Shown in pieces: positions 1,151 to 24,045 of a stretch of DNA of 64,000 bases. Every line of letters begins with the position of its first letter. Within the stretch, counting starts at the first letter, position 1. This DNA comes from Pseudomonadota bacterium (GTDB taxonomy: Bacteria; Pseudomonadota; Gammaproteobacteria; Ga0077536). The DNA lies in the NCBI GenBank assembly GCA_043734785.1, contig JAYTEX010000175.1:704-64703 (forward strand). The letters run 5' to 3'. The notes under the pieces were generated by a model that saw only the letters and a list, made by a program, of their open reading frames with translations, was not told the DNA's origin and made no database searches. The position numbers and the translations under genes are program-made.

Positions 1151-1547
1151 CTATCTAGTCATCGCTGAAAAAAATCGCTTCTATCGCAGCCAAAGCGCAT
1201 GCGGGCAGCGTATTCAAGGTAGGTTGGGGTGAGTGCCGCGAACCTCAACATCAATGATCCGCCGAGTGACCGCGTAGTCGCGAATCTGAGTATCCACGCG
1301 AGCGGGTCTACTCTCTGTTGGGCTTCGCAAGCTCACCCCAACCTACCCGATCGGGTCAAGCTCACCCCAACCTACCCGATCGGGTTAAGCTCACCCCAAC
1401 CTACCCTCTCGGGTTTCGTGTCTGTGCGCGACTTTTCAAGCTTTCGCTACTCAGCCCACAAATCTTGCAAAATCATCTCGCCACGTATGCGAGCGGTTCC
1501 CTATTTCCACCGCGCAGAATGCTTTTTTCAGGGACGACTATCTAGTC
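1151..1547 (+). mobile_element. MITE-like non-autonomous element, copy 1, with imperfect terminal inverted repeats TAGTCRTCSCTGAAAAAA
   Basis: The left end is tagtcatcgctgaaaaaaa (1156) and the right end is ttttttcagggacgacta (1523-1540). Three 29-bp tandem subrepeats gctcaccccaacctacccgatcgggtcaa lie at 1331-1415. The internal sequence is shared with the copies at 11078 and 23556. A 10-bp ctatctagtc sits at both flanks. Confidence 0.7.
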
Positions 1548-2021
1548 GACGAGATGCCGCTCGACCACGAGTTTGATGGCTACTCTGCTACTTCGATCGG
1601 GCTCGCGTGTCACTGCACGGTCTTCACCAGGCTTCCAGCCGCTGGTGCGCCCCCGGCGTAAGACCCATTCAACAAGCGCAGTTATGGTTCGGGATAGTCG
1701 CCAAGCGGCGTGCTCTGTGCCATCTGCTTGAAGCCGCCTGGGGGTACTGGAACGACCCGCAGGGTCCACGGTCGCGCCGAGGCGCGATCTGCGGCATTTA
1801 ATGGCCGCAACGATCTCTCCGCCGTGCGTAAGCCTCCACGTGCCGTCGCCAAACTTTGAGGGTTCTTCGACGCGTATGCCAAGAAGTAAGATCGTGGCGC
1901 GCGCAACGGTCTGCGCGCGCCGTAGACGGAACTCTGCAGTCCACGCGTAGCCTACAACGCCGAGCGCCGCCAAGAGGACCACCAGGCACTCAATGCGTCG
2001 CTCCCACCCGCTGCTGCCGCG

Positions 2022-3277
2022 TCAATAGCCGTGCGGCCGTGGCCACGGCATCGTGAACTGCTCGCCGCGCTTCACGAACTTGTAGCGATGCAGGTGGAAC
2101 CACGCGGAGGCCGCCATGAAGAACACCAGGATCGAAATCAGGTAGTGCGCGTAACCGAGAAAGGTCGCGAAGAATACCAACAGGCACAATAAGAACAAGA
2201 CAGCGGCGGGAATCGGATGGAACGGATGCACATAACCGCGCTTAATGGATCCCAGTGGCCATAGCCGGCGAAAACGTACCACGTTTAACGACATGAAGGT
2301 GTAGCCCAAGAGTCCTGACAGGATCGAAAACGTGATCACGCCATCGAGCCGCACATTCCAGGCGAATACCACCGCAATCGGAATCAGGAACAGGATCGAG
2401 CGGAAGGGCGTGTGGTAGCGCGGATGTACGGCGCCGAACCATTGCGGCATGTAACGATCGCGCCCCAGCGAGAACCAGGCGCGCGCCGCATCGTTGATAC
2501 AGCCATTGACGGAGATGAGCGTGGAGAACAGCGTGCCGACGAACAGGAACACCTGCAGGCCGATATTGCCAGTCAAGATCGCGGCGTCGTATAACGGCGT
2601 ATAGGCTTGGCCCAGATACTCCCATGGCATGAGGCTCGCGGTCACATACCAGGTCAGGCTGGCCCCGATGATCAGCGTGATCATACCGGTCATGGTGCCG
2701 AGCGGGATCGAGCGACCCGCCGAGCGACATTCCTCCGCCGCCTGGCACGTGCCTTCGATTCCTAAGTAATACCACATGCCGAATTGCAGCGACGCGATGA
2801 CGCCGATCCAACCGTACGGCAACCCGGTTAACAGATCACTGTGGCGTAACAGTCCGTCACTGCTGAAGGGCTCGGTACCGAAGAACAACACCACGATCAC
2901 CAGCAACACGAACGGACGGGAGTCGAGATTAGGATGCCCGGTCTCGGCCGCCACCGTTTGCAGCAGATCGGCGGCAACGAAGGCATTGCCCGCCTCGAGC
3001 ATCGTGTAGGCCAAGACCAGGTAGAGCGCGACATTGAAGGCCATGAGCGGCCCGACGATGTGCTTGGCCTGGGCGTACTGCCCCCCCCCGCCGCCGCGAC
3101 CGTGGAGGTGACCTCCGAATCGATCATCGCGACGCAGGTGTACAACAACCCGATCACCCAGCACGCGATTAAGGCCGCTAGCGCGCCGCCTTTGCCGACC
3201 GCGAAATTCCAACCCATGAATTCGCCGACCAAACAAATCCCCGCCCCCAGTCCCCACACGTGCACCGGCCCCATCAA
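2022..3277 (-). CDS. APC-family amino-acid/ethanolamine-type permease, interrupted by a 1-bp frameshift in a G9 homopolymer (coding strand) at 3081-3089
   Basis: Two overlapping minus-strand ORFs (2897..3277 and 2022..3299) together make one 12-TM APC permease. The N-terminus ...SEVTSTVAAAGGG joins ...QYAQAKHIVGPLMAF only if the run has 10 G rather than 9. The APC signature ExxxxxPxAGGxYxYxxxAxGP is then reconstituted. Confidence 0.7.
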
Positions 3278-3326
3278 CCCTTGCGCAGGTTGATCCCATG
3301 ATACTGCGTCTGCGACTCAGTGGTGC

Positions 3327-3524
3327 TCATGGGGCGTTTCCCTGGGACTCCATGAGTTCATCCACGCCTTCGCGTGAACTGACCAGCACCCCTTCGTCGT
3401 ATTCGGCACCGACTCGCATGGCGTCGATCAGCATCCAAAGCATTAACACGCCCGAGACTCCCCAGGCCACATATTCGAGTACGTTCCAGAAATCCATACT
3501 GGCTTCCTCTTGCGCAATCGTCAC
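3327..3524 (-). CDS. small hypothetical membrane protein (65 aa), translationally coupled upstream of the permease
   Basis: The ORF has one hydrophobic segment (VAWGVSGVLMLWMLI). Its ATGA start overlaps the stop of the upstream ORF at 3521-3524, and it sits 28 bp before the permease start. Confidence 0.35.
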   Translation of the reverse strand: MTIAQEEASMDFWNVLEYVAWGVSGVLMLWMLIDAMRVGAEYDEGVLVSSREGVDELMESQGNAP

Positions 3525-3994
3525 TCATCGAATTTTTCTGCGATCACTTCCCGATACTCGCGTTCAGAAAGACGCAGTATGCCGAAGTGATAAATCACCA
3601 GCAGCGCGACCGAGATGCCCAGCGTGAGGGGATTGACCGAGTAATCGAAGCGCTTATTGATGATGGCGGCTGCGGCCACAGGGTCTTTGCCGAGTTTCTC
3701 CCATTGGGTGGCCATCGTTGCGTTCTGTCCGAGTGCTTCCCAGGTGGGCGGGCTTGATGCACGTTCTGTCGCAGCACCTGCGTCCGGTGGCGCCCGCATA
3801 TTGGCCAGCCATAGCGGTGCGCTGAGTGACACGAAAACCAGAACTAAAACGAGTAAGGCATCAAACACCATGCCCATGTGGCCCTGTTCGGGCGGTTGAT
3901 AACCCGGCTTCGGCATCGGAACCCTGCCGCAAAGATTATTGCTTGATTGACGACTTGCGTTATCCAGCATCAAGATGCCGGATATCGAGCCCAT
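3521..3994 (-). CDS. hypothetical membrane protein; the true start may be internal
   Basis: The ORF has hydrophobic segments (LVLVLVFVSLSAPLW; LTLGISVALLVIYHF). I recognise no domain. It is co-oriented with the permease. Confidence 0.35.
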   Translation of the reverse strand: MGSISGILMLDNASRQSSNNLCGRVPMPKPGYQPPEQGHMGMVFDALLVLVLVFVSLSAPLWLANMRAPPDAGAATERASSPPTWEALGQNATMATQWEKLGKDPVAAAAIINKRFDYSVNPLTLGISVALLVIYHFGILRLSEREYREVIAEKFDE

Positions 3995-4339
3995 AGATGA
4001 AATCCTTGTCTGCTTCGTACTGGCGGATCATGGCGATGATGGCGGCGGTGTTGAACACCAGCATCAATAGTGCCGCGACAATTGCGTAGATGGTCACGCG
4101 AAGCGGTTAGCCGCACTCAGCTGGACGCTCCTGCGCATCCCTGCGCCCGCGGCATTAGTGATTCTCTTCACGGCATAAGCGGCGTGGCTTCTGCCTGAGC
4201 TGTGGCACGCGCCGGATGGCGGGTAGGCCGCGCTGCTGGTGGACGAAGTGCTACCCCGTGAACCGTTACGGCAATGGGTGCTGAGCGTTCCATTTGCGTC
4301 GCGGGTGAACTGTGCAAATAACTGTTTCTTGAAACCGCT

Positions 4340-4402
4340 GCTTGACATTGAAATTTTTATAATCAATAAATATATTGAATATCAACATCGCTAAATCGAG
4401 AT
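4340..4402 (+). promoter_or_regulatory. AT-rich promoter-like region with TTGACA and TATAAT-like hexamers and a palindromic operator-like site ATCAATAAATATATTGAAT
   Basis: gcTTGACAttgaaattttTATAATcaataaatatattgaatatcaac is sharply AT-rich in a ~65% GC context. It lies directly upstream of the 4403 CDS. Confidence 0.4.
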
Positions 4403-5281
4403 TTGCAAAGAGCGCGTATCGTGTTGAACTTACTTGCGCACGAACCCACCATTCGTATAAGTGCCTTTGTTGGCGTTTTCGCGTTCATGGCGATTTGGGA
4501 ACTGCTCGCGCCCCGGCGCGCCCTGGTAGTTTCTAAGCCGATTCGCTGGGCTAGTAACCTCGCTCTGGTGGTATTGAACACCGTAGCCCTTCGTGTCGTC
4601 ATTCCTGTCGCCGCGACCGGACTAGCGCTCAATGCAACTGAACAAGGCTGGGGCCTTCTGCAGCAAGTCAAACTGCCCGAAAGTCTACGCGTACTCGTCG
4701 GCTTCGTTATCCTCGATCTCGTCATCTATTTTCAACACGTGTTATTTCATGCGGTTCCCGCACTATGGCGTGTGCATCGTGTACACCACGCCGACCTCGA
4801 TTTCGACGTGACGACTGGCGCCCGCTTCCATCCGATCGAAATATTTCTGTCGATGGCGATCAAGTTCGCCGTCATCCTGGCGCTGGGCCCGCCGGCGGTT
4901 GCAGTGCTGATTTTCGAGGTGGTGCTCAATGCGGCGGCGATGTTCAGTCATTCAAACGTGCGCATCCCATCCGCGGTTGAGCGCATGGTGCGCTGGTTCA
5001 TCGTGACACCCGACATGCACCGCGTCCATCATTCAGTGCTGCCGAATGAAACCAATAGTAATTTCGGGTTTAACCTCTCGGCATGGGATCGGCTATTCGG
5101 CACCTATCGTGCGCAGCCATCAAAGGGCCATACGGAGATGACGATCGGGTTGCTGGGGTTTCGCGATCCACGCGAGGTCGATCGACTCGCCGGGATGCTG
5201 TGGCTTCCGTTCGTCAGGTCGCAAGATAAGTACGCGATCAATCGCCGATCATCGTCTTCGATTCCGAAGACGCCCTCGTGA
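4403..5281 (+). CDS. fatty acid hydroxylase / sterol desaturase superfamily membrane protein
   Basis: It has histidine boxes HRVHHAD and HRVHH plus multiple TM segments. This is typical of the ERG3/ERG25-like di-iron hydroxylase family. Confidence 0.8.
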   Translation: MQRARIVLNLLAHEPTIRISAFVGVFAFMAIWELLAPRRALVVSKPIRWASNLALVVLNTVALRVVIPVAATGLALNATEQGWGLLQQVKLPESLRVLVGFVILDLVIYFQHVLFHAVPALWRVHRVHHADLDFDVTTGARFHPIEIFLSMAIKFAVILALGPPAVAVLIFEVVLNAAAMFSHSNVRIPSAVERMVRWFIVTPDMHRVHHSVLPNETNSNFGFNLSAWDRLFGTYRAQPSKGHTEMTIGLLGFRDPREVDRLAGMLWLPFVRSQDKYAINRRSSSSIPKTPS

Positions 5282-5385
5282 CAAATTCTGTCGCCGCGCG
5301 CGTAGAGGGATATCCCTGTTGGTCGAGTGTTGGTCCTGCGGACAACGAGATTAGACGAATGACCTGGCGGTTAAAAAAATATCAT

Positions 5386-6552
5386 TCAGGCCGGATACAT
5401 CTTGACCAAGTTCTTCGCGATCAGGATCCGCTGGATCTCATTCGTGCCTTCGCCGATGCACATGAGGGGGGCATCGCGGTAATAACGTTCGATATCGTAT
5501 TCGGCCGAGTAGCCGTAGCCGCCGTGAATGCGCATCGCTTCCTGCGAGCAGTACAGCGCAGTTTCGGATGCGAACAGCTTGGCCATGCCTGCCTCCAAAT
5601 CGCAGCGCTCGCCGCGCTCGTATTTCTCGGCCGCCTGATTGGTCAGCAGTCGCGCAGCCTCCACGCGAGTCGCCATTTCGCCAAGTTTGAGCGCAATCGC
5701 CTGGTGTTCGCAGATCGGCTTACCGAAAGTTTTGCGTTGCTGGGCATAGCGGATCGAATCCTTGAGCGCCGCATTGGCGAGCCCGACACCGCGCGCCGCG
5801 ACATTGATCCGCCCGAGTTCTAACCCGCCCACTGCATGCTGGAAACCATGACCCTCTTCGCCCCCTAACACACGTTCCGCTGGAATTCGAAAATCGTTGA
5901 AGCTCAGGCCCACACTCTCCACCGAGCGATAGCCGAGCTTCTTGAGTTTGCGATCGACCGTAAAACCCGGCCCCTTCTCGGCCAGGAACATGGTCATTCC
6001 TTTGTGGGCGGGTTTGGTCGTGGGGTCGGTCTTGGTCAACACCGCGTACAGGCTGCCGTATAGGCCGTTCGTGATCCACATCTTGGAACCATTGAGCACG
6101 TAATGATCGCCATCGCGCTTCGCGACCGTCTTGATGCCCTGCAGATCGGTCCCGGCATCCGGCTCGGTCAGACACAGCGCGCCGCGCATTTCTCCAGTCG
6201 CGAGCCTGGGCAGGAACTGTTCTTTCTGCGCCTGCGTGCCGAAGCGGTAAATCAGTGTTCCGAGCATCAAATGGGAATTCAATATACCGCCGATGCTCAT
6301 GAAGACTTCGGCAATTGCGGTGACGATTTTAGCGTAGGTCGTCGACGGCAGGCTCATGCCGCCATATTCCACCGGGATCGTCAGACCGAACAGTCCGAGT
6401 TCCTTCATCTGCTCGACGAGATCGAAGGGATATTCATCCGCCTGTTCATATTTTTTCGTGACCGGTCGAACCTCCTTTTCCAGCCAGGTCGTGACTGACG
6501 CGAGGATCTGGTTTTCGTCTTCGCGACTGAATTGTGCCGCTATCGCTGCCAT
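5386..6552 (-). CDS. acyl-CoA dehydrogenase
   Basis: It has the ACAD family C-terminus (...YRDAPLMCIGEGTNEIQRILIAKNL) and the middle-domain CLTEPDAGTDL motif. I place the start at the internal Met MAAIAAQF. Confidence 0.85.
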   Translation of the reverse strand: MAAIAAQFSREDENQILASVTTWLEKEVRPVTKKYEQADEYPFDLVEQMKELGLFGLTIPVEYGGMSLPSTTYAKIVTAIAEVFMSIGGILNSHLMLGTLIYRFGTQAQKEQFLPRLATGEMRGALCLTEPDAGTDLQGIKTVAKRDGDHYVLNGSKMWITNGLYGSLYAVLTKTDPTTKPAHKGMTMFLAEKGPGFTVDRKLKKLGYRSVESVGLSFNDFRIPAERVLGGEEGHGFQHAVGGLELGRINVAARGVGLANAALKDSIRYAQQRKTFGKPICEHQAIALKLGEMATRVEAARLLTNQAAEKYERGERCDLEAGMAKLFASETALYCSQEAMRIHGGYGYSAEYDIERYYRDAPLMCIGEGTNEIQRILIAKNLVKMYPA

Positions 6553-6670
6553 GCTCGTATGCCTCGGAAAGTGGTTTAATTCGCGGTGAACGCCATCCAC
6601 CGCAATGACGGTGCTGGTCATGTGGGGCGCTGCGTGGGAAACCAGCAACACCGCCACTGATTAATCTCCA

Positions 6671-7810
6671 TCAAACCCGCAACCCTGCCTGCTTCATCAG
6701 CGGCAGTACGCGCTCGCCAAAATACTTGAGCTCCTCATAGTAATCGAGCCACGTCAGGATAAAACCCTCGATGCCGAGATCGGCGAGTTCCTGCATCTTC
6801 GCGACCACCTGTTCCGGCGTGCCGACCAGCGGATAACCGCCCCAGCCCGCGATGAAGCGCTCTCCAAACTGCTTGATCTGTTCGTTAAAGGAACTGCTCT
6901 CGACGCCGAGCAGATTCATGATGTTGTGGGTCGCCTCCCAGTCCCCTTCATCGACGATCCGGCGATACTGCGCCTGGGCTTCGGCTTCGGTGTCTCGACA
7001 GCAGACCAACCCGTAACTCATCACCCCCACCTGCCGAGCATGTTTCGCCGCGCGTTGGTGAATGTCCGTGACCAACCCTTGGGCCTGTTCTTTAGTGGCG
7101 ATGGTAATGAAGTTGAAGTCCACATGCCGCGCCGAGAACTCGCGACCCTCTTCTGAATTGCCGGCATTGATCAGCACGGGATGGGGCTGCTGAATCGGCT
7201 TCGGCAGCAGAAAACCGCCTTTGATCTGGAAGTACTCGCCCTGGTGGTCGAAGTCCTGCTCCGTCCACGCGCGCTTGATGCAGGTCAGCCAGTCCGCGGC
7301 CATGACGTAGCGGGCTTGATGCGACAGTTGCGTGATGCCGAACATTTCAATTTCAGGGCGGAACCATCCACACACGGTATTGAGCCCAAAGCGCCCGTTC
7401 GAGATGTGATCGATCGTCGCGCCCTGCTTGGCGGCCAGCAGCGGATGCACGGTCGGCACATGCGAGGTCGCATAGACCATAATCTTGCTTGTATTGCAGG
7501 CCATTGCCGTCGCCCAGGTATAGACCTCCATATTATTGGCGTTGAACAGCGTGGTGCCGCCGAAATGTTTCCAACGACCAACCGGCACCAGGAGTTCGAA
7601 ACCCAGATCGTCCGCGAGCTTGGCAATCTTGACGTTGTGTTCGTAGGTCGGCTCGAAGGTCGTCGCCGCGTGCGTAATCGTGCAGCCGTTGCTGCAGTTC
7701 ATGCCGAAGATACCGAGCTTCAGGCGATTGTCGTTGTAGACAGGCACGTGCGCTCGGCGCCAGGCGTGGATGTCATCCGGATGCAAAGGGGATACGAATT
7801 GCGAATTCAT
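6671..7810 (-). CDS. LLM-class (luciferase-like) flavin-dependent monooxygenase
   Basis: Its length and motifs fit the bacterial luciferase family TIM-barrel (GIFGMN..., GRFGLNTVCGW, VGTPEQVVAKMQEL). Confidence 0.8.
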   Translation of the reverse strand: MNSQFVSPLHPDDIHAWRRAHVPVYNDNRLKLGIFGMNCSNGCTITHAATTFEPTYEHNVKIAKLADDLGFELLVPVGRWKHFGGTTLFNANNMEVYTWATAMACNTSKIMVYATSHVPTVHPLLAAKQGATIDHISNGRFGLNTVCGWFRPEIEMFGITQLSHQARYVMAADWLTCIKRAWTEQDFDHQGEYFQIKGGFLLPKPIQQPHPVLINAGNSEEGREFSARHVDFNFITIATKEQAQGLVTDIHQRAAKHARQVGVMSYGLVCCRDTEAEAQAQYRRIVDEGDWEATHNIMNLLGVESSSFNEQIKQFGERFIAGWGGYPLVGTPEQVVAKMQELADLGIEGFILTWLDYYEELKYFGERVLPLMKQAGLRV

Positions 7811-8065
7811 GATGAGTCTGCTTTGCTTGCGGGGAGAAGTACGAAGTCGTGGCCGTGATGGAGGTCGACAGCGGCGATGACATGAACGCGATCGTGCACA
7901 GCCTGCCGATCTCGAAACAGGGTCTTATGCGCATATCGTGCCAGAGGTCAACTGGATTCCGCTGCGGTCGTATGAGAACTGAGCGATGCAACTCGAGGCG
8001 CTGGCAAGTGTTGACGAGTCGCGCTAAACACTAACCCCGTGCCCCGCGAGCTGCCGGGGCGAACC

Positions 8066-8902: not shown

Positions 8903-9330
8903 TAACGCTTGGCGGCGGTAGCTTGAAGGGTATAGGCGAGTTCGAACATCGCCTCGGTCATGCGGCCTGCTTCGAGCAGATTGCCTTCAGTGGCGATCTC
9001 GACCGAGAGTTCACCGAGGCGTTTCATCTTCGGGTCATCATCGAAATAGCGCTTGCCCGGGAAGGTAAGATCCGCCCAGCGACGCTTGCCGCTGAGGAGG
9101 TATTTCCAGGCTTTCTCATTACCCGAGAATTTAAAGGTGTAGCCGAAGGGCGGCACTGCGCTGCGATGGTCAATCACTCGGCCACAATAAATCTTCAACC
9201 ACAGACGGTCGCTGTCCACTTCCAACAGCACAGAGCCATCGAACCAGCGGGTTTGTTCGACAAACGCGGAGTTCGCGTTAAGCGCTTTGACGAAGCGCGT
9301 TTGAAAGGTCGGTAACGCAATAAAACTCAT
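8902..9330 (-). CDS. hypothetical protein (142 aa), possibly SCP2-like or lipid-binding; stop/start overlap with the downstream hydrolase
   Basis: An ATGA overlap at 8902 suggests translational coupling. I recognise no confident domain. Confidence 0.45.
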   Translation of the reverse strand: MSFIALPTFQTRFVKALNANSAFVEQTRWFDGSVLLEVDSDRLWLKIYCGRVIDHRSAVPPFGYTFKFSGNEKAWKYLLSGKRRWADLTFPGKRYFDDDPKMKRLGELSVEIATEGNLLEAGRMTEAMFELAYTLQATAAKR

Positions 9331-10996: not shown

Positions 10997-11077
10997 GTGC
11001 TCTACAAAAATTTCGATACTCCATGAAATCAGGCACCGGCAATCACGCTGCCAATTCCATCGCAGGCGCGTCCTTTA

Positions 11078-11407
11078 CTTAGTCGTCCCTGAAAAGAGCA
11101 TTCTGCACGGTGGAAATAAGGAACCGCTCGCATTGTGGCGAGATGATTTTGCAAGATTTGTGGGTTTCGCCGAGCGAAAGCTTGCAAAATCGCGCGGAGA
11201 CACGAAACCCGAGAGGGTAGGTTGGGGTGAGCTTGCGAAGCCCAACAGTGAGTAGACCAGCTCGCGCGGATACTCGGCTTCGCGACTACGCGGTCACTCG
11301 GCGGATAATGGATGTTGGGGTTCGCGGCCCTCACCCCAACCTACCTTGAACACGCTGCCCGCATGCGCTTTGGCGGCGATAGAAGCAACTTTTTCAGGGA
11401 CGACTAC
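11078..11407 (-). mobile_element. MITE-like element, copy 2 (inverted orientation), with near-perfect TIRs TAGTCGTCCCTGAAAA
   Basis: The ends are cttagtcgtccctgaaaag (11078) and ttttcagggacgactac (11391-11407). Its internal sequence is collinear with copy 1 after reverse-complementing. The terminal CTA of the TIR (11403-11405) forms the TAG stop codon of the adjacent minus-strand gene. Confidence 0.75.
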
Positions 11408-12639
11408 TTATACAGCGCCACTGCATCAATCCGACGCATGATATCTAGCATGACTTTGCGGTAGCCCGCGCCTTCGATTCCACCGTAACGCCGCTTGAAA
11501 TCGGCTTCGGTCATCTGTTCCCGCAATCCGTCTGGCGCAGGAATCCATTCGAGATCCTGGGTCGCCTCCGCTGCCCGCTTTTGAATCTCGCGGGCCACCA
11601 CTCTCGACTCAGTGGCGCGCTGGCCAAAGCGGGTGCCGGCTTCATCCGCCATTAAATCGATAAAACTGAAACCACTACCGCCCCGCGAATCTTCAATTTC
11701 TTTCGCCAGGCCTATCGCATGCGCGACGGTCTTACCACCCGTCGCCGCCAACGCGGCCGAGTTCAAGAAGTGCTTGGTCAGATCATTGCGTCCATGGACG
11801 CGTACCGCGCGCCGTTGCGGTGCCGGCCACTTCGCAGCCCCCGGCACTAGCCCAGTGAGTCGCTGACCATTCACATAACTGGACAATGTCAACAAGGCTG
11901 CACGATTGTCCGCCACCGGATCACCCTTTGATGCGCGCTCGACACCGAACGCGAACAGCGGTGCCGCTAGCGCTGGTAGCGCAACTGCACCCTGTTGTTT
12001 CGCGACGACCTCGACCAGCCTGAGATGAAACTGGTGCAGACGTTCCGTATCCTCGGCAGGAATCAGTTGGTTGCGTACCGCCGTTGCGATCTCCGTGTGC
12101 CACTGATAGTGCAAAATAACGGCTGCCTGCTGAAATTCGATCCCACGCAGCAACGAGCCCGGTTCAGTGAGCCCGACACGGGCATAAGCCAACCTGAACA
12201 CCACCGCCAGCAGTGGACTGGCCAGCGCGCCAGGGAACGTAACCCGTCCAATTCGCAGATTATCGAGCGCTGGCATCCCCCCTGTTTCGGTGAGCGCAAT
12301 CGTCAGGTTCAAATACTGCCCGATCGGGTTCTTCGGCAACACGCGCGTGAACGCTGCGGACAAAATTTCCTCGCTCACCGTCACGCGCGAAGCACCGCCA
12401 CCGAGCGGCGCGAGGGCATAGTTGAGCACCAGGCTCAATTCATCGGCGCTCAACGCGAGCGACTTCAACTCACCATCGCGCAGTCGGCGCGGATCGTGCT
12501 CCAACAACAGCGCACGCGCGCGTTTGATCTGGAGCGGATTCAGGCGCTCCTGGGACGCTACTCGCGGCTCGCGCTCCAGCATCGCGAACGGCGTTGCCAC
12601 CACGACAAGCAGGATCAACCAACCGACCAATCGCGCCAC
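11404..12639 (-). CDS. hypothetical exported protein (411 aa, N-terminal signal/TM anchor), function unknown
   Basis: A hydrophobic N-terminus (LVGWLILLVVVATPFA) is followed by a long ORF with a coding-like codon pattern. I recognise no domain. Its 3' end abuts MITE copy 2. Confidence 0.55.
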   Translation of the reverse strand: MARLVGWLILLVVVATPFAMLEREPRVASQERLNPLQIKRARALLLEHDPRRLRDGELKSLALSADELSLVLNYALAPLGGGASRVTVSEEILSAAFTRVLPKNPIGQYLNLTIALTETGGMPALDNLRIGRVTFPGALASPLLAVVFRLAYARVGLTEPGSLLRGIEFQQAAVILHYQWHTEIATAVRNQLIPAEDTERLHQFHLRLVEVVAKQQGAVALPALAAPLFAFGVERASKGDPVADNRAALLTLSSYVNGQRLTGLVPGAAKWPAPQRRAVRVHGRNDLTKHFLNSAALAATGGKTVAHAIGLAKEIEDSRGGSGFSFIDLMADEAGTRFGQRATESRVVAREIQKRAAEATQDLEWIPAPDGLREQMTEADFKRRYGGIEGAGYRKVMLDIMRRIDAVALYK

Positions 12640-15687: not shown

Positions 15688-15958
15688 AGAGAATCCTTGG
15701 CAATGATGGAGAAAATTAGGGTGCTCGATATTTTGCCACGTCCTGACAGGAGCGACCTGCCTCGGTTACGAGTCTGCCGCGCAAGCGCGCCGGCCCTGCG
15801 TGCAACTAAACTCGCATCCCGCCCGTTCCAGTAGGCGCCCAAGCGCATATTTGTTAGCATTAGCGCCTGCTGCGAAGGGGGTTTCGCCCGCGTTCATTTG
15901 CGGTCCTAAGGTTCAATAATCCTACGCCGTGCGCCCGGCACAAAACATAGAAGAAAAA

Positions 15959-17122: not shown

Positions 17123-17136
17123 CTCGAGGAGAATCC

Positions 17137-18627
17137 ATGTCCGCACTGCCGAAGTTCAATGCCTACATCAACGGACAATCCGTGCCATCGGTATCCGGTC
17201 AAACTTTTGAAACCGTCAATCCCTATACCGCACAAATATGGGCCGAAGTTGCACGCTGTAACGCGGCGGATGTCAATCGTGCGGTAGAAGCCGCGTGGAG
17301 CGCATTCACCACCGGCGACTGGCCGACACTAAACGCCACCCAACGCGGCGCAATGGTGCACAAGCTTGGCGATCTCATCCGCGATAACGCGCGTGAACTC
17401 GCCGAATACGAGGTTCGCGACAACGGTAAACTGTTTGCCGAGATGTTCGGTCAGTGCAATTACATTCCGAACTGGTACTGGTACTACGGCGGCATGGCCG
17501 ACAAGATCGAAGGCGCGGTGATTCCGATCGACAAGGCCGACGTCTTCAACTACACGCGGCACGAACCGTTGGGGGTCATTGCGTGCATTACGCCGTGGAA
17601 TTCGCCGCTGCTGCTGCTCTCGTTCAAGCTCGCGGCGGCGCTTGCGGCCGGTAATACGGTGGTGATCAAGCCCTCGGAGTTCACATCCACCTCTACGCTG
17701 AAGCTGATGGAGCTCGTCGAGAAAGCGGGCTTCCCACCGGGGGTCGTGAACGTCGTGACCGGCTTCGGTAACGAGGTGGGAGCAGCGCTGGTCGAACATT
17801 CCAAAGTTGCCAAGGTGTGTTTCACCGGCGGGACCGAAAGCGGCGCCATGGTCTATCAAGCCGCCGCCAAGGGCTTGAAAGGCTGCACGTTGGAACTGGG
17901 CGGCAAGTCACCCAACATCGTGTTTGACGATGCCGTGCTCGACGATGCCGTGAAAGGCGCGATCTCCGGAATTTTCGCCGCTACCGGTCAGACCTGTATC
18001 GCAGGATCCCGGCTGCTCGTGCAGGACTCGATATACGATGCTTTCGTCGCGCGCCTGGTCGCGTTCGCCAAAACCGCACGCATGGGTGATCCCATGGACC
18101 CGAACACGCAGGTCGGGCCGGTGACGACACCGCCGCAGTACGAGAAAATCCTGAAATACATCGAAGTCGCGAAAAGCGAAGGCGCGGAATGCCTGCTCGG
18201 CGGCGGCCCCGGGAACGGACCCGAGTGCGGAGATTCGAAATGGTTCGTACAACCCACGATCTTCGGCGGCGTGACCAACCACATGCGAATCGCACAGGAA
18301 GAGGTGTTCGGTCCAGTGCTCTCGATCATTCGTTTCAAGACAGATGAGGAAGCGGTGGAGATCGCGAACGATATCGCGTTTGGTCTCGCCGCCGGCGTGT
18401 GGACGCAATCGATCAAGCGCGCGATCAAGATCTCGAATGCAATTCGCGCCGGCACAATCTGGGTCAATACCTACCGCGCGGTGAGTTATCTCTCGCCCTT
18501 CGGCGGCTATAAAAAATCTGGCTTAGGGCGCGAAAATGGGATCGAAGGCATGCGCGAGTTCCTGCAGACCAAGAGTGTGTGGATTTCGACGGCCTCCGAT
18601 GTCCCCAACCCGTTCGTCATGCGCTAG
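17137..18627 (+). CDS. NAD(P)-dependent aldehyde dehydrogenase
   Basis: It has the ALDH motifs FTGGTESG, ELGGKSP and the catalytic Cys region GQTCIAGSR. It is 496 aa. Confidence 0.9.
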   Translation: MSALPKFNAYINGQSVPSVSGQTFETVNPYTAQIWAEVARCNAADVNRAVEAAWSAFTTGDWPTLNATQRGAMVHKLGDLIRDNARELAEYEVRDNGKLFAEMFGQCNYIPNWYWYYGGMADKIEGAVIPIDKADVFNYTRHEPLGVIACITPWNSPLLLLSFKLAAALAAGNTVVIKPSEFTSTSTLKLMELVEKAGFPPGVVNVVTGFGNEVGAALVEHSKVAKVCFTGGTESGAMVYQAAAKGLKGCTLELGGKSPNIVFDDAVLDDAVKGAISGIFAATGQTCIAGSRLLVQDSIYDAFVARLVAFAKTARMGDPMDPNTQVGPVTTPPQYEKILKYIEVAKSEGAECLLGGGPGNGPECGDSKWFVQPTIFGGVTNHMRIAQEEVFGPVLSIIRFKTDEEAVEIANDIAFGLAAGVWTQSIKRAIKISNAIRAGTIWVNTYRAVSYLSPFGGYKKSGLGRENGIEGMREFLQTKSVWISTASDVPNPFVMR

Positions 18628-18630
18628 GCC

Positions 18631-19740
18631 ATGAGCGCCCTCTCAGAGGTGCTCGTGGTGTCGTTGGAGCAGGCGGTCGCCGCGCCCTATGCCACGCGCC
18701 TGCTGGCCGAAGCCGGCGCGCGGGTGATCAAAATCGAGCGCGAAGAGGGCGATTTTGCGCGCGCCTACGATACCGTCGTCAACGGGGAATCCACCTTTTT
18801 TGTGTGGCTCAATGCGGGCAAGGAATCGCTGATCCTGGATGTGAAAGCGCCGGCAGATCAGGCGCTGTTACGCGCCATGTTGATCAAGGCCGATGTCTTC
18901 ATTCAGAACCTGCGCCCTGGTGCGCTCGACCGCATCGGGTTCAGCTACAACGAGGTCGCCAAGCTGAATCCCGGCCTGGTCATGTGCAGTATCTCTGGCT
19001 ACGGCATGGAAGGTCCGCTGGCTGAGATGAAGGCCTATGATTTTCTGGTCCAGGCGGAGAGCGGTTTGTGTTCGGTGACCGGCACGGACGGCGTACCCGC
19101 CCGTTGCGGGATCTCGATCAGCGATATTTCCACCGGCCTTTCCGCGTACGGAGAAATCCTGCGCGCGCTGCTGGAACGCGCCAAGACCGGACGCGGGCAG
19201 TTTCTCGACATCTCGCTGTTCGATGTCATGAGTGAGTGGATGAGCGTGCCGCTGGCGCTCTACCAATACGGGGGGCGTTTGCTCACCGGCACCGGTCTCG
19301 ACCATCCACAAATAGCACCCTACGGCGCCTATGCGACTAAGGATGGCTTGATCATTATCGCCGTGCAGAACCATCGCGAGTGGATCAGCCTATGCGAGAC
19401 GCTCGGCTGCGCGGAACTCCTAGGCGATGAACGGTTCAACACGATCCCGGCGCGCGTGCAACACCGAGAGGCGCTCAAGATCGAACTCGAGCGAATCTTC
19501 CTGCAGCATACGCGAGAGGAACTGGCGAGCATTCTGGATCGAGGCAGTATCGCCTATGGCAGAATCAACAACGTGCAGGATGTCTGGTCGCATCCGGCGT
19601 TGAAAACCAAGGAAGTCCTGTCGCGCGGGAAAACCGCGACCTTCGTGCGCAGAGTGTGCGATCAAGCGGAGGCTCCACGGGTGGTGCCAGGCCTGGGCGC
19701 ACACACGGAGTCGATCAAGAAAGAATTTCTGGAGAAATAG
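18631..19740 (+). CDS. family III CoA-transferase (CaiB/BaiF-like)
   Basis: The N-terminus VLVVSLEQAVAAPYATRLLAEAGARVIKIER and the overall length are typical of CaiB/BaiF. Its ATG overlaps the upstream stop region. Confidence 0.85.
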   Translation: MSALSEVLVVSLEQAVAAPYATRLLAEAGARVIKIEREEGDFARAYDTVVNGESTFFVWLNAGKESLILDVKAPADQALLRAMLIKADVFIQNLRPGALDRIGFSYNEVAKLNPGLVMCSISGYGMEGPLAEMKAYDFLVQAESGLCSVTGTDGVPARCGISISDISTGLSAYGEILRALLERAKTGRGQFLDISLFDVMSEWMSVPLALYQYGGRLLTGTGLDHPQIAPYGAYATKDGLIIIAVQNHREWISLCETLGCAELLGDERFNTIPARVQHREALKIELERIFLQHTREELASILDRGSIAYGRINNVQDVWSHPALKTKEVLSRGKTATFVRRVCDQAEAPRVVPGLGAHTESIKKEFLEK

Positions 19741-19791
19741 CGTCAATCGCTAGAGGGCACGGCAATTAATAACATCTTAAGGGGAGTAGTC

Positions 19792-20730
19792 ATGAACCTG
19801 AAATCAATCTGTGCGTTGGCGATAGTGGCGTGGGCGACCAACAGCGTCGCCGACGATGCCGCCTGGTATCCCTCCAAGTGGGGCAAGGACGATCAACTCG
19901 GCGCCTTCAATATGAACGGCCCGGCACTGACACTCGAAGCCGCGAAACTCATCAAGACCGGCAAGACCTATCGTCTCGCCATCGAGTCGAATCCCTCCAC
20001 CCCGGCCTTCCCGCCGCGCAACCTGCACGTGATCGTGCTCGCACCGAATCAGCTGTCCGGTAAGTCGCTCGGCAGCAACAAGATGACGTATGCGGACGAT
20101 ATCATCAACGGCTGGGTCGGCGTTGGCTCGCAGATCGATGGCCTCGGTCACGCCGGGATCGATCAACGCTACTACAACGGTGTGCAAGGCAACGACTTCA
20201 TCAAGCCCGATGGCCTCACCAAATTTGGGACGCAGCAGTTTCCGCCAGTCGTGACTCGCGGCATTCTAATCGACATGGCCAAGTGCGCCGGGAAAGACAT
20301 CCTTGATGTCGGCTACGCTTACACCAAGGTGTTAATCGAAGCCTGCGCCAAGCAACAGAACACCGAGATAAAACGCGGCGATGTGGTGCTGTTTAATTCC
20401 GGCTGGATGAACATGATAACCAAGGATCTGGCCACGTATAACAAGGGCGAACCGGGCCTTGGCAAGGGCGGTGCGGAATATCTCGCCGGCCTGGAGGTCA
20501 TGGCGGTGGGCGGGGATACTTGGGGCTTGGAAGTGCTACCAGCGGAAACGGCGGACGAAGCATTTCCAGTGCATCAGATTCTGTTGCCCAAGAACGGCAT
20601 TTATATTCTCGAGAATATGGATACCCGCGAATTAGCGAAAGATCAAGCGTACGAATTCATGTTCGTGCTGGGTGCCGCGCGGCTGACTGGCGCGGTGCAG
20701 ATGATCATCAATCCGGTCGCGATTCGCTAA
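19792..20730 (+). CDS. cyclase-family protein (kynurenine formamidase-like fold) with N-terminal signal peptide
   Basis: It has a signal peptide MNLKSICALAIVAWATNSVA and the cyclase-family motif QIDGLGH, at typical length. Confidence 0.7.
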   Translation: MNLKSICALAIVAWATNSVADDAAWYPSKWGKDDQLGAFNMNGPALTLEAAKLIKTGKTYRLAIESNPSTPAFPPRNLHVIVLAPNQLSGKSLGSNKMTYADDIINGWVGVGSQIDGLGHAGIDQRYYNGVQGNDFIKPDGLTKFGTQQFPPVVTRGILIDMAKCAGKDILDVGYAYTKVLIEACAKQQNTEIKRGDVVLFNSGWMNMITKDLATYNKGEPGLGKGGAEYLAGLEVMAVGGDTWGLEVLPAETADEAFPVHQILLPKNGIYILENMDTRELAKDQAYEFMFVLGAARLTGAVQMIINPVAIR

Positions 20731-20863
20731 CTGCGTCATCCCGGACGGAGCCGCGTAGCGGCGCAGGTCCGGGATCCAGGGGCATTTAAGGCTCAGGATG
20801 GACCCCGGATAAACGCCGCGCGTTTTCCGGGATGTCGGGGTTGATGCGTTCACGCGTTGATCA

Positions 20864-21916
20864 ATGAAACCCTTCTACACGATGAGAGAAAACGCCGTGG
20901 CTACCATTCTAATCGACGGTCCCTACTTCGAAGAATTTACCAGCGGCCAGACGTTTGTCGCGCCGTCCATCACGGTCACCGATGGGCACGCGGCGGTGTA
21001 TGCCGCGTTGTTCGGTGATCGCATGCGTTTGCCGCTGGATCGGCACCTGTCACGTAAGGTCACGGGCGATCCACGTGGTCTGTGTCATCCGTATCTCGCG
21101 ATGCACCTCGCGGCGGGCCAGACGACTTATGCCTCGCAACATGTGAAAGGTAATCTGTTCTATCGCGGCGTGCTGCTACAGCGCCCCGTGTTCCTTGGTG
21201 ACTCGCTCTACACCACCACCAAGGTGGTGGGTCTGAAACAAAATAAAGCCAAAGCCGGGCGCGCCGCCACCGGCATGGTGGCGCTTGAAATGACCACAGT
21301 GAATCAGCGAGACGAAGTCGTACTGCATTTCTGGCGGTGTCCCATGATTGCTTGCAAAGACCCTGCGGCTTTGACTGGGCATAACGATAACTTTGATTGG
21401 ATGAAAAACACGTTCTCAATCGAGGAGCTGACTGGCGCGTTACCACAGCAGTGGAACCTCGCGCCGCTCGCCAGTGATCTCACGGGTTTAAAGTCACCGA
21501 CCGTGGCCGCGGGAGACGTGTTCGAAATCGCCCCCAAAGACACCGTGACCTGTGCGCCCGAGCTCGTGCGAATGTCGCTCAATATCGCCTACACCCATAC
21601 CGACGAGACACGGAGTTATCTGGGCCAGCGCCTGGTCTACGGGGGGCACACGATATCGCTCGCCCTGGCGCAGATCGGGCGCGCGCTGCCCAATCTGCTG
21701 CACATGGTGGCCTGGCGCCATTGTGATCACCTGGGCCCCGTGCTTGAAGGCGATTTGATCAGCAGCCGTTTCACGGTGGTGAGTTGTCATCCCGTGCAAA
21801 CCGGGGGCACGCTTTATGACCTGTCCGTAGAGGCTTCTGCGCACCGCAAGAACAAGAATGGCGAGATGCTAGGCGAGAAGGTACTCGATTGGGGCTTGGT
21901 GGTATGGGGAGCTTGA
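20864..21916 (+). CDS. MaoC-like (R)-specific enoyl-CoA hydratase/dehydratase, double hot-dog architecture
   Basis: Its roughly 350 aa hold two hot-dog halves, resembling mesaconyl-CoA/itaconyl-CoA hydratase-type proteins. Confidence 0.7.
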   Translation: MKPFYTMRENAVATILIDGPYFEEFTSGQTFVAPSITVTDGHAAVYAALFGDRMRLPLDRHLSRKVTGDPRGLCHPYLAMHLAAGQTTYASQHVKGNLFYRGVLLQRPVFLGDSLYTTTKVVGLKQNKAKAGRAATGMVALEMTTVNQRDEVVLHFWRCPMIACKDPAALTGHNDNFDWMKNTFSIEELTGALPQQWNLAPLASDLTGLKSPTVAAGDVFEIAPKDTVTCAPELVRMSLNIAYTHTDETRSYLGQRLVYGGHTISLALAQIGRALPNLLHMVAWRHCDHLGPVLEGDLISSRFTVVSCHPVQTGGTLYDLSVEASAHRKNKNGEMLGEKVLDWGLVVWGA

Positions 21917-22060
21917 GACGTCACATGGATCGCACAAGCCGCATGCGGATACCTCGAATTTTCAGTTGAACGGCGGGGCCTCGGCTTTCTTCTTGGTGCC
22001 CTGTTTGTGCTTGATAGTTACGCTTGACATATATAGGTGTACGGAGAATGATGGCTTTCG

Positions 22061-22345
22061 ATGGCAATCAAAACGTGGGCTTGTAACAGAACGGAATTGA
22101 TATTCAACGGCGGTAGTCCCGATATTGTTCCTCGCACCCTGTTGAAGCGAGCGCACGGGAAGCTTCTTATGCTGCATGCCGCAGTGGATTTGCGTGATTT
22201 ACGGGTACCCTCGGCGAATTGCCTTGAGAAGCTCCACGGCGACCGCGCCGGGCAATACAGCATCCGGATCAACAACCAATACCGGGTTTGTTTTTCGTGG
22301 CGCGGCGGCGATGCCTACCAAGTTGAAATCGCGGACTATCACTGA
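22061..22345 (+). CDS. higB: type II toxin HigB (RelE/ParE superfamily, plasmid-maintenance-system killer)
   Basis: ...GQYSIRINNQYRVCFSWRGGDAYQVEIADYH is the hallmark HigB C-terminus. The toxin precedes the antitoxin, which is the HigBA order. Confidence 0.85.
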   Translation: MAIKTWACNRTELIFNGGSPDIVPRTLLKRAHGKLLMLHAAVDLRDLRVPSANCLEKLHGDRAGQYSIRINNQYRVCFSWRGGDAYQVEIADYH

Positions 22346-22357
22346 GGAACTGATACC

Positions 22358-22648
22358 ATGCGCGCGCCCATCCATCCCGGCAAAATTCTTAAAACTGAAT
22401 TTTTGGACGAACTCGGACTCACCGCTTATGCGCTGGCCAAGGCGCTTCGCGTGCCCGCGAACCGTGTCACCGGGATCGTCAATGGTGATCGTGGCATCAC
22501 GGCGGATACCGCGCTGCGCTTGTCCCGGTACTTTGGCACGAGTCCGGAATTCTGGCTGAACCTTCAAGCGCACTACGATCTTTCCGTCGCCAAGCGGACT
22601 CTCGGCCAGAAGATCGAGCGGGAAGTGCCCGTCATGACGGCGGCGTAG
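22358..22648 (+). CDS. higA: type II antitoxin HigA (XRE-family HTH)
   Basis: HPGKILKTEFLDELGLTAYALAKALRVPANRVTGIVNGDRGITADTALRLSRYFGTSPEFWLNLQAHYDL matches the HigA/VapI HTH family. Confidence 0.85.
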   Translation: MRAPIHPGKILKTEFLDELGLTAYALAKALRVPANRVTGIVNGDRGITADTALRLSRYFGTSPEFWLNLQAHYDLSVAKRTLGQKIEREVPVMTAA

Positions 22649-22747
22649 GTACCTCACGCCGCACTCCGGTGATACCCTCTGTGAGCACGAAGCCAATGCC
22701 ATCGAACTTGCGAACTTGCCGCGTTGGCCGGATGCCGGCACAAAAGC

Positions 22748-23527
22748 TCACAGACTTGCCGTATGCCCGCCGTCCACCGTCATCAGGTTGCCATTCATAT
22801 AGCGTGACGCATCCGAGGCCAGGTAAATGAGCGCGCCATCCAGCTCCGAAGGCTCGCCGAAACGCTGGGCCGGGATCCGACTGCGTAGTCGCTCGCCAGC
22901 CGGTGTCTGCAACCATTCATCGTTCATCTCGGTCGTGAAATAGCCGGGCGCCAAGGCATTCACGCGAATGCCAGAAGACGCCAGATCCACGCACAAGTCG
23001 CGGCCCAGATTGATCAAGCCCGCCTTCGCAGCGGAGTAAGGCGCAAGATGCCCGATCGCGCGGATGCCAAGAACAGACGCGATATTGATGATGCTCGCGC
23101 CGCGCTTATCGGCCAACCGGCGCTTGATCACTTCTTGTGCGAGAACCCAGGGGCCACGCAGATTGGTCTCATACACCGTGTCCCACTGCTCGTCCGTGAG
23201 CTTCTGCGGCGCTTTCGGGATCGCAATACCAGCGTTGTTGACCAGCACATCGATCGGCGCAATCGCTTCAACCGCCGCCACGCAGGCGCGAATATTCTCG
23301 CGCTCGCGCACGTCCAACGCATAAACCTCGCAGCGCCCGCCCTCCGCACGCAACTCCACTGCCAGCGCTTCCAGCTTGGAAGTCCCGCGCGAACATAGCG
23401 CGACTCGCGCACCTGCCCTGGTCAAGGTGCGGGCAAAATGGCGGCCAAGGCCGCTGGACGCACCGGTGACCAGAATATGTTTGGCGGACAGATCGAACAC
23501 TGAAGTCAAAAACGTTTTCGGATCCAT
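22748..23527 (-). CDS. SDR-family short-chain dehydrogenase/reductase
   Basis: It has VTGASSGLGRHFARTL (the TGxxxGxG motif) and the YxxxK catalytic region YSAAKAG. Confidence 0.85.
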   Translation of the reverse strand: MDPKTFLTSVFDLSAKHILVTGASSGLGRHFARTLTRAGARVALCSRGTSKLEALAVELRAEGGRCEVYALDVRERENIRACVAAVEAIAPIDVLVNNAGIAIPKAPQKLTDEQWDTVYETNLRGPWVLAQEVIKRRLADKRGASIINIASVLGIRAIGHLAPYSAAKAGLINLGRDLCVDLASSGIRVNALAPGYFTTEMNDEWLQTPAGERLRSRIPAQRFGEPSELDGALIYLASDASRYMNGNLMTVDGGHTASL

Positions 23528-23555
23528 GGATTCCCTCGTGTATGCAAACCTAATT

Positions 23556-24045
23556 TAGTCGTCCCTGATCCGCCGAGTGACCGCGTCGTCGCGAATCTGA
23601 GTATCCGCGCGAGCGGGTCTACTCACTGTTGAGCTTCGCAAGCTCACCCCAACCTACCCGATCGGGTCAAGCTCACCCCAACAACCCGATCGGGTTTCGT
23701 GTCTGCGCGCGATTTTGCAAGCTTTCGCCCCGCTCAGCGGGCAGCGTGTTCAAGGTAGGTTGGGGTGAGCGCCGCGAACCCCAACATCCATTATTCGCCG
23801 AATCACCGCGTCGTCGCGAATCTGAGTATCCGCGCGTGCGGGTCTACTCACTGTTGGGCTTCGCAAGCTCACCCCAACCTACCCGATCGGGTCAAGCTCA
23901 CCCCAACAACCCGCTCGGGTTTCGTGTCTGCGCGCGATTTTGCAAGCTTTCGCTGCTCAACCCACAAATCTTCCAAAATCATCTCGCCACAATGCGAGCA
24001 GTTCCCTATTTCCACCGCGCAGAATGCTTTTTTCAGGGACGACTA
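23556..24045 (+). mobile_element. MITE-like element, copy 3 (dimeric/internally duplicated), with TIRs TAGTCGTCCCTGA...TCAGGGACGACTA
   Basis: The ends are at 23556 and 24045. It contains two tandem copies of the roughly 190-bp internal unit, each with 2 x 29-bp subrepeats. It lies 28 bp upstream of the SDR start codon. Confidence 0.75.

Follow-up and report, generated by a model that had tools for sequence, protein, structure and literature searches.

Correia elements of Neisseria are short MITEs with terminal repeats that begin with TA; they lie in TA-containing targets at gene boundaries and can influence neighbouring transcription there; their target duplication is TA only, and we know of no transposase partner for them. 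Among IS5-like insertion sequences, ISGlo4, from plasmid pGLOV01 of Trichlorobacter lovleyi SZ, is 1469 bp long with a ~440-aa DDE transposase, and ISRm12 of Sinorhizobium meliloti is an autonomous element. BrickBuilt, from Porphyromonas gingivalis, is a MITE with a variable number of 23-nt internal tandem units (PMC4596501). Pairs of GTAG REPs have been described as “HH dimers” with spacers of 20–100 bp (PMC3733652) and as REPINs (PMC3116915), and Di Nocera et al. reported REP dimers inside longer palindromes in Anabaena variabilis (PMC3733652).

The stretch of DNA that we analysed, referred to as the window, is 64 kb long and derives from an uncultured gammaproteobacterium. It contains three copies of an element which is genuine but, apart from the unusual palindromic, REP-like sequence that it carries, a rather ordinary derivative of a transposon. 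Six matches to TAGTCGTCCCTGAAAA were found in the whole window when up to three mismatches were allowed (0.26 expected). They form three inverted pairs, and the aligned arms of the copies are collinear with 92–93% identity, in agreement with the initial annotation, which had described three collinear copies with inverted termini. The terminal inverted repeat is ~16–19 bp long; four of the six ends are perfect, one has two substitutions (the left end of copy 1, whose mutant form is TAGTCATCGCTG), and one is truncated. Boundaries are given throughout with the terminal TA counted inside the element (Table 1). The terminal repeats are probably unrelated to those of Correia elements.

The three copies are dispersed at unrelated loci within the 64 kb, all at gene boundaries (copy 2 between two convergent genes, facing the 3' end of each), and there were no additional fragments of the element elsewhere in the window. 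Copy 3 had been called dimeric. Its core does contain an internal duplication with a 225-bp period, beginning at GCGGGCAGCG, but it is not a simple dimer: on the left side, the 13-nt terminal repeat is joined to the core via a ~85-nt deletion. In short-read assemblies of the same strain, contigs end inside the element at copies 2 and 3, which is consistent with a multi-copy repeat and accounts for these assembly breaks. Given ~7–8% divergence between copies and damage to two of the six terminal repeats, the activity of the element may be old.

Table 1. Positions of the elements, their target duplications, internal repeats and adjoining genes in the window.
Feature	Position	Strand	Details
MITE copy 1	1156..1540	+	385 bp; right terminal repeat intact, left with 2 substitutions (TAGTCATCGCTGAAAA)
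MITE copy 2	11080..11406	-	327 bp, shortest form; both terminal repeats perfect; one 29-bp unit
MITE copy 3	23556..24045	+	490 bp; right end intact; left terminal repeat 13 nt
Target duplication TATCTA, copy 1	left 1152..1157, right 1539-1544		read directly
Target duplication TAAGTA, copy 2	gene side 11405..11410, far side 11076-11081	-	
Target duplication TAATTTA, copy 3	left 23551..23557, right 24044-24050		
Tandem 29-bp array, copy 1	1329..1415	+	3.0 units of AAGCTCACCCCAACCTACCCGATCGGGTT; TRF
Tandem 29-bp array, copy 3, first module	23639..23695	+	2.0 units; TRF
Tandem 29-bp array, copy 3, second	23864..23920		2.0 units; TRF
REP-like hairpin 1, copy 2	11314..11344	-	GTAG-GTTGGGG-TGAGGGCCGCGAA-CCCCAAC
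REP-like hairpin 2, copy 2	11217..11246	+	GTAG-GTTGGGG-TGAGCTTGCGAAG-CCCAAC
CDS, 411 aa, conserved hypothetical	11404..12639	-	stop overlaps copy 2 end; C-terminus intact
SDR gene	22748..23527	-	start codon 28 nt from copy 3

Target duplications flank all three copies, and every one fits TA(N2-3)TA; at copy 1, the last TA of the left duplication and the first TA of the right one coincide with the terminal TA of the element on the respective side. Uninterrupted sites for copies 2 and 3 exist in close relatives. A relative whose neighbouring protein is 95% identical (L142) reads ...CTGTATAAATAGCAGACGCGCC... and is collinear with both flanks of copy 2, which overlap on a single TAA[A/G]TA. In a second relative (GCA_031397265.1, L143; SDR 99% identical), a single TAAATTA lies between the DUF1329 and SDR genes at the position of copy 3. 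There was no clean empty site for copy 1 in the relative compared, because that relative is non-homologous across a ~650–750-bp stretch (748 bp). The terminal repeats, the duplications and the two empty sites together uphold, by the test that the initial annotation had set for itself, the proposal that these are non-autonomous, MITE-like transposable elements. The length of the duplication is ambiguous, since the sequence may be read as a duplication of 6–7 bp, or of 2–3 bp if the terminal TA belongs to the element. The classical IS5 subgroup typically duplicates 4 bp, and 2–4 bp is usual in several IS5-family subgroups; neither reading of the window copies matches the typical 4 bp. Correia elements differ here as well, in having a TA-only duplication.

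The initial annotation had raised the possibility of an autonomous partner with the same termini, and the identical terminal repeat indeed bounds IS5-family insertion sequences in metagenomes as well as ISGlo4. The exact 16-mer of the repeat occurs at at least 120 loci in JGI metagenomes, where pairs of repeats ~1.5 kb apart enclose ORFs of 446–474 aa with matches to DUF772 and DDE_Tnp_1 and with NF033578 scores of 495–531 bits, against a cut-off of 275. Among the matches listed, an IS5-type transposase lies just within the terminal repeat at 44 of the 61 loci for which 600 bp or more of the interior could be read. At 106 of 123 independent ends, again among the matches listed, a TA follows two or three bases beyond the edge of the element, which is the flank pattern of the three window copies; these ~1.5-kb relatives of ISGlo4 have the same TA-NN(N) preference. 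ISGlo4 itself carries TAGTCGTCCCTGAAAA at 16 of 16 positions at one end and 14 of 16 at the other. In contrast to ISGlo4, the window elements are 327–490 bp long and non-coding, and they have only ~19–30 terminal bases in common with ISGlo4-type insertion sequences. ISRm12 is a more distant relative with a homologous terminal repeat (TAGTCGGCGCTGAAAAA / TAGTCGGCCCTGAACAA) that differs at 3–4 positions; its flanks (TATT...TTTA) fit the TA-NN-TA pattern, and its transposase is ~49% identical to those of the metagenome elements. It is in other organisms that this terminal repeat has been shown to go with a transposase. The 64-kb window contains no IS5 transposase and, as first described, its elements are non-autonomous within it.

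We consider it probable (roughly 0.85) that these elements are a MITE family mobilised in trans by an IS5-family DDE transposase of the ISGlo4/ISRm12-like group (NCBIfam NF033578), and we infer that a matching IS is present in the host, or formerly was, and does the mobilising. Such a transposase would recognise the 16–19-bp terminal inverted repeat TAGTCGTCCCTGAAAA(AGT) and would insert the element into AT-rich TA-N2-3-TA sites, after which the target would appear as a 6–7-bp direct repeat TA(N2-3)TA, or as a 2–3-bp duplication with the TA inside the element. In a genome of 58% G+C, these sites would be concentrated at gene boundaries (stop codons and promoter regions), and this clustering of targets would explain how the copies can abut gene ends and yet leave the genes undamaged. 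The non-coding interior consists of two GTAG-tagged, REP-like hairpins in inverted orientation and a spacer, and has probably diversified since by slippage (1–3 units of 29 bp), by the 225-bp duplication and by deletion. This reading connects the MITE, which is new, with an IS5 subgroup that is very widespread and has 17–19-bp ends near-invariant across environments, and it documents the TA-N2-3-TA target preference of that subgroup from more than 120 independent ends. It leaves the current understanding of MITEs unchanged.

The 29-bp internal tandem subrepeats noted previously were recovered by TRF, at one to three units per array, and each unit spans the second REP-like hairpin's 3' half and ~10 nt more. 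BrickBuilt and the window elements are both small, intergenic and non-coding, with inverted ends and tandem units of 23 nt and 29 nt, respectively. However, BrickBuilt is mostly minisatellite, whereas in the window elements the tandem units arose as a minor, secondary expansion within one REP-like arm, and the two have no sequence relationship.

The two REP-like hairpins are mutually inverted at a spacing of ~95 nt, with their GTAG ends pointing outward, and both arms have a GTAG tag, a 6–7-bp stem and a 13-nt loop. In predicted DNA and RNA folds, the two arms pair with each other over a 16-bp stem. The hairpin potential ascribed to the element was confirmed, as predicted folding beats that of shuffled sequence with z = -7.2 (DNA) and -7.4 (RNA). 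The interior has two of the hallmarks of REPs and REPINs: a GTAG (GT[AG]G) tag adjoining an imperfect palindrome of 20–40 bp (PMC3733652), and an inverted REP pair giving one long predicted hairpin. Its spacer and outward GTAG orientation fit the HH-dimer layout; unlike GTAG REPs and REPINs, however, the pair in the window travels within an element that has terminal repeats at its ends and target duplications around it, and the window, which has no solo copies, does not show the high extragenic copy number that marks such repeats. We rejected coding potential for the internal ORFs: they have no Pfam match, and their amino-acid differences (~9 changes in the first 40 aligned codons) follow the nucleotide differences between copies that are 92% identical as DNA. 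That the GTTGGG...CCCAAC hairpins are integron attC sites is unlikely, because the pairs are singletons beside housekeeping genes, with no cassette arrays.

Outside the window, the interior is found apart from its ends. A 30-mer of it occurs, without terminal repeats, in scattered genomes of Gamma-, Beta- and “delta”-proteobacteria, and the REP pair without terminal repeats is present in at least 12 other genomes. A scan of species-representative genomes with a core 20-mer found, in other taxa, just the REP pair and never the pair together with terminal repeats, which implies that the host species lies outside this collection. Other genomes have one or two exact REP matches each, a lower bound, as an exact 20-mer was needed. 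Two Pseudoxanthomonas species have the REP pair at the same locus, where it is conserved better than its flanks. Copy 2 had no BLASTN match among PLSDB plasmids, viral contigs had no match to the right end of the element or to the REP 20-mer, and the interior was absent from the listed matches among the at least 120 metagenome terminal-repeat loci. In the searched literature, the terminal-repeat and REP strings gave chance primer matches only. The family thus appears new, as the initial annotation had it, across the plasmids, species-representative genomes, viral contigs, listed metagenome matches and literature covered.

A REP doublet carried by a DDE-type MITE is a minor oddity, and it could be a route by which REPs pass between genomes. 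An unlikely extension of this thought is that the element is a chimera, in which a REPIN, whose REP doublet a tyrosine/HUH transposase replicates, was captured within an IS5-type MITE such that one 330-bp sequence could be moved by two unrelated enzymes. If so, the DDE route could spread a REP family to new genomes by horizontal transfer, which might help to explain an identical 30-nt REP arm at one or two copies across Gamma-, Beta- and “delta”-proteobacteria, and RAYT processing, as opposed to slippage, could have left the 29-bp head-to-tail REP half-units behind as scars.

It is also quite unlikely that the element, once mobile, has been domesticated as a structured host sequence acting at gene ends in transcript stabilisation or termination, or as a small RNA. 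The very strong predicted structure (z about -7), the gene-boundary position of all three copies and the conservation of the REP pair relative to its flanks in Pseudoxanthomonas would suit such a role. However, Rfam gave nothing credible either for the whole window at the gathering threshold or for copy 2 and a Pseudoxanthomonas REP pair at a permissive E-value, and promoter- and terminator-like sites are no more frequent than in shuffled sequence. The target preference suffices to explain the gene-boundary position. Moreover, insertion polymorphism between close relatives, together with large insertions, deletions and duplications among copies, argues against constraint on the element.

We regard as improbable a REPIN-type origin, in which the internal inverted REP pair would be the mobile unit, a REP-associated tyrosine (HUH/Y1) transposase its enzyme, and the outer repeats incidental. 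The two inverted GTAG-tagged hairpins ~95 nt apart with their predicted 16-bp stem, the agreement of this layout with the HH dimer of GTAG REPs (PMC3733652), and the finding of the pair elsewhere without terminal repeats all speak for it. Against it, the two empty sites show an inserted segment bounded by the terminal repeats, not by the REP pair. The window insertions also have target duplications and, to our knowledge, HUH/Y1 transposition makes none (IS200/IS605-type mechanisms). In addition, there were no REP copies in the 64-kb window beyond those in the three elements, and no RAYT gene among the 10 neighbouring ORFs scanned beside the inspected REP pairs.

It is highly improbable that the elements are MITEs of the IS630/Tc1-mariner type with a TA-only duplication, although TA brackets each element on both sides and a metagenome element (L032) has an IS630-like ORF within these terminal repeats. 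A TA-only duplication would make the empty sites 4–5 bp longer, whereas a TA(N2-3)TA is present just once at the sites in the relatives; the transposases within the terminal repeats are IS5-type (NF033578, DUF772, DDE_Tnp_1); and L032 resembles a disrupted IS5 element, since part of an IS5 transposase, its C-terminal end, is still there. Segmental duplication or recombination as the source of the three copies is scarcely credible: the internal 225-bp duplication of copy 3 and the rearranged region around copy 1 might suggest it, but in every copy homology breaks off precisely at the inverted ends, these ends are the same as those of elements that carry a transposase, each insertion is flanked by a short direct repeat of its own, and the target duplications together with the precise empty sites for copies 2 and 3, which keep a single target copy, exclude it. 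A Tn3-derived MITE (TIME), for which we presumed a resemblance to GGGGTCGTCTCAGAAAACGG, was rejected as well. TIMEs have a ~38-bp inverted repeat starting with GGGG and a 5-bp duplication; the ends here start with TAGTCG and the duplication is 6–7 (or 2–3) bp, both of which misfit.

For annotation, the transposon reading accounts for three odd intergenic blocks and bears on two neighbouring genes. Copy 3 begins 28 nt upstream of the start codon of the SDR gene, as recorded initially, and displacement of the SDR promoter by this insertion is possible. A consensus scan of this junction found no promoter-like site and one terminator-like site, the latter within the range of shuffled sequence. At copy 2, the initial annotation correctly stated that the terminal repeat supplies the stop codon of the adjoining 411-aa gene: the TAG, at 11406-11404, is the first three bases of the repeat and consists of the target TA and the G of the element. 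The further suggestion that the insertion had altered, or truncated, the C-terminus of this protein has to be corrected. The protein ends in ...ALYK as its homologues do, and all 14 homologues in the alignment terminate at one and the same column, in ..ALY[K/R/Q] followed by a stop. The end is unchanged because the target TAAGTA already contained a stop, such that insertion converted CTG TAT AAG TAA into CTG TAT AAG TAG.

A search of the window for the 16-mer TAGTCGTCCCTGAAAA, allowing up to 3 mismatches, returned 6 matches where 0.26 would be expected by chance, and these form three inverted pairs. Together with the collinear alignment of the sequences they enclose (shared arms 92–93% identical), they bear out the three copies of a non-coding mobile element claimed in the initial annotation. 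We set the boundaries with the terminal TA counted inside the element. BLAST revealed no further fragments of it in the window besides these copies. The element folds far more stably than shuffled sequence (z = −7.2 as DNA and −7.4 as RNA).

Coordinates of the element copies and of example REP-like heterodimers in other genomes
Feature	Location	Positions	Strand	Length
MITE copy 1	window	1156-1540	+	385 bp
MITE copy 2	window	11080-11406	-	327 bp
MITE copy 3	window	23556-24045	+	490 bp
REP-like heterodimer	L016	7052-7136		
REP-like heterodimer	L005	6153-6237		

The 29-bp internal tandem subrepeats reported earlier were also detected by TRF, which gave 3.0 units in copy 1 and 2.0 in each half of copy 3; copy 2 has one. 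This variation in unit number would fit slippage following dispersal. Copy 1 carries two substitutions in its left terminal repeat, and at the left end of copy 3, 13 terminal-repeat bases are joined to the core through a deletion of ~85 nt. Copy 3 had been described as dimeric. Its core does recur, with a period of 225 bp, but this reflects internal rearrangement and not the fusion of two elements.

Two checks on mobility had been proposed, target-site duplications and empty sites in relatives. Direct repeats surround 3 of the 3 copies: TATCTA at copy 1, TAAGTA at copy 2 and TAATTTA at copy 3. Empty sites were recovered for copies 2 and 3. The Logan contig L142, from a relative, encodes an orthologue of CDS 11404-12639 with 95% identity; its empty site reads ...GCGCTGTATAAATAGCAGACGCGCCTGCG..., and the window flanks of copy 2 align to it without gaps on both sides, overlapping on a single TAA[A/G]TA. 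Contig JANNLX010000896.1 of GCA_031397265.1 (L143), whose SDR is 99% identical, is collinear with both flanks of copy 3, and the interval from its DUF1329 gene to its SDR gene holds a single TAAATTA. Because the copies are flanked by direct repeats and two empty sites exist, an origin by segmental duplication is ruled out. A duplication of TA only is likewise ruled out, as it would leave empty sites 4–5 bp longer than observed. In short-read assemblies of the same strain, contigs stop within the element at copies 2 and 3, the behaviour expected of a multi-copy repeat.

The exact 16-mer occurs at at least 120 loci in JGI metagenomes. At L045, L077, L093, L106 and L116, facing terminal repeats ~1.5 kb apart enclose an ORF of 446–474 aa. 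The three ORFs scanned (L045, L077 and L093) matched Pfam DUF772 and DDE_Tnp_1, and against a cut-off of 275 bits they reached 495–531 bits with the NCBIfam model NF033578 (‘IS5 family transposase’). Among the matches listed, 61 loci offer 600 bp or more of interior sequence within the contig, and 44 of these encode such a transposase just inside the terminal repeat; short elements with identical ends are also present, one of 93 bp at L064 and one of 206 bp at L070. ISGlo4, from Trichlorobacter lovleyi pGLOV01, agrees with the terminal repeat in 16/16 positions at one end and 14/16 at the other; the terminal repeat of ISRm12 (Sinorhizobium) has diverged to TAGTCGGCGCTGAAAAA. Autonomous elements sharing the terminal repeats, which the initial annotation had advised seeking, are therefore found in these metagenomic IS5-family elements and in ISGlo4, and on sequence similarity the element's ends are assigned to a known IS5 subgroup. 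The window itself is without an IS5 transposase, in agreement with the earlier observation that no transposase is present. As a separate observation, the same terminal repeats bound a 1.5-kb element at L032 10-1539, in which an IS630-like transposase spread over two frames precedes what is left of the IS5 transposase, its C-terminal end alone; another IS appears to have interrupted or supplanted an IS5 element here.

Among the matches listed, TA stands two bases outside the element at 89 of 123 independent ends and three bases outside at 17 more, and position −3 is A at 110 of the 123. The window copies obey this TA-N2-3-TA rule exactly. The duplication would be either 2–3 bp, with the terminal TA part of the element, or 6–7 bp. 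One paired case, L116 (flanks GATT and TTTA), favours the 2–3 bp duplication with the terminal TA belonging to the element; ISRm12 is flanked by TATT and TTTA. In a genome of 58% G+C, this preference is sufficient to explain why the copies lie at gene boundaries.

The core of the element is an inverted pair of hairpins, the first GTAG-GTTGGGG-TGAGGGCCGCGAA-CCCCAAC and the second the reverse complement of GTAG-GTTGGGG-TGAGCTTGCGAAG-CCCAAC, spaced ~95 nt apart, with outer parts that form a 16-bp stem. The 29-bp unit corresponds to the 3' half of the second arm plus ~10 nt. This pair agrees with the description of GTAG-tagged REPs and ‘HH dimers’ (stem 5–13 bp, loop 2–20 nt, spacer 20–100 bp; PMC3733652); REP dimers set within longer palindromes are also noted in Anabaena variabilis (PMC3733652). 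The invariant 20-mer of the second arm was found at 15 loci in species-representative genomes, a collection without the host species, with 1–2 matches per genome, in Pseudoxanthomonas, Methyloprofundus, Sedimenticola, Nitrococcus, Lysobacteraceae, Rhodocyclaceae, other Betaproteobacteria, a ‘delta’ MAG and a Phycisphaerae MAG. Outside the window it lies mostly in the same heterodimer with a spacer of ~30 nt; terminal repeats accompany it at 0 of the 15 loci, and the neighbours of the pair in other genomes are unrelated housekeeping genes. A working REPIN would show high copy number and a RAYT gene. High copy number was not seen in the window, where the REP motif is confined to the three elements, and we therefore treat the REP pair as cargo of the MITE.

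At L004–L018 the heterodimer reads [A/G]TAGGTTGGGGTGA..CCCCAAC, ~30 nt, GTTGGGCTTCGCAAGCTCACCCCAACCTA[C/T]. Its 30-nt arm is identical across distantly related Proteobacteria, and two Pseudoxanthomonas species have it at the same locus, far better conserved than the flanks. L006 4440-5045 (MAG MFD05684.bin.1.22) has three tandem 213-bp units, each with the same REP-like inverted pair, an arrangement reminiscent of the duplication with 225-bp period inside copy 3.

By the features tested the element is a MITE, its three copies being counted within the 64-kb window. Its interior was not found in plasmids, species-representative genomes, viral contigs or the searched literature, nor at the metagenome terminal-repeat loci (among the at least 120 matches listed). 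BrickBuilt, a bacterial MITE with an internal minisatellite, is a precedent for its internal tandem units (PMC4596501). Less ordinary are a DDE-type MITE carrying a REP doublet and the wide, unexplained spread of the exact REP arm.

Copy 2 lies between two convergent gene 3' ends. The proposal that it altered the C-terminus of CDS 11404-12639 was not borne out, as 14 of 14 homologues (54–95% identical) finish in one and the same column of the alignment, ALY[K/R/Q] being their last residues before the stop. The stop is already within the reconstructed target (CTG TAT AAG TAA); on insertion its last base is replaced by the G of the element, giving TAG. Copy 3 cuts off the ribosome-binding site and start codon of the SDR gene (22748-23527) from a ~200-bp intergenic region kept in the relative. 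A consensus scan of the copy 3/SDR region found no promoter-like site and one terminator-like site, within the range of shuffled sequence; an effect on SDR expression would be possible but is unsupported. Directly downstream of the SDR gene is a HigB-like toxin/HTH_3 antitoxin pair (window ~22176-22741; L140 1204-1683). The more distant relatives L144–L146 are without this pair; in them an additional Abhydrolase_3 gene separates DUF1329 from SDR instead.

No clean empty site for copy 1 was found in the 94% identical relative GCA_031397265.1. Window 1140-1887, which spans copy 1 together with the next 347 bp on the right, has no homology to L147 2085-2730, where the minus strand carries two complete ORFs (219 and 94 aa). 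Since the window retains only their termini, ORF 1542-1982 is probably a remnant or chimeric ORF.

A near-perfect palindrome of ~60 nt (GGGAAATCGGGGACAGACCACGATTA...TAATCGTGGTCTGTCCCCGATTTCC), of a family unrelated to the MITE, occurs in two copies at 56261-56323 and 57204-57278. These flank a ~900-bp segment with two small minus-strand ORFs, which is probably a toxin-antitoxin cassette because the antitoxin domain PaaA2 (‘stability determinant’) is present in one of the ORFs.
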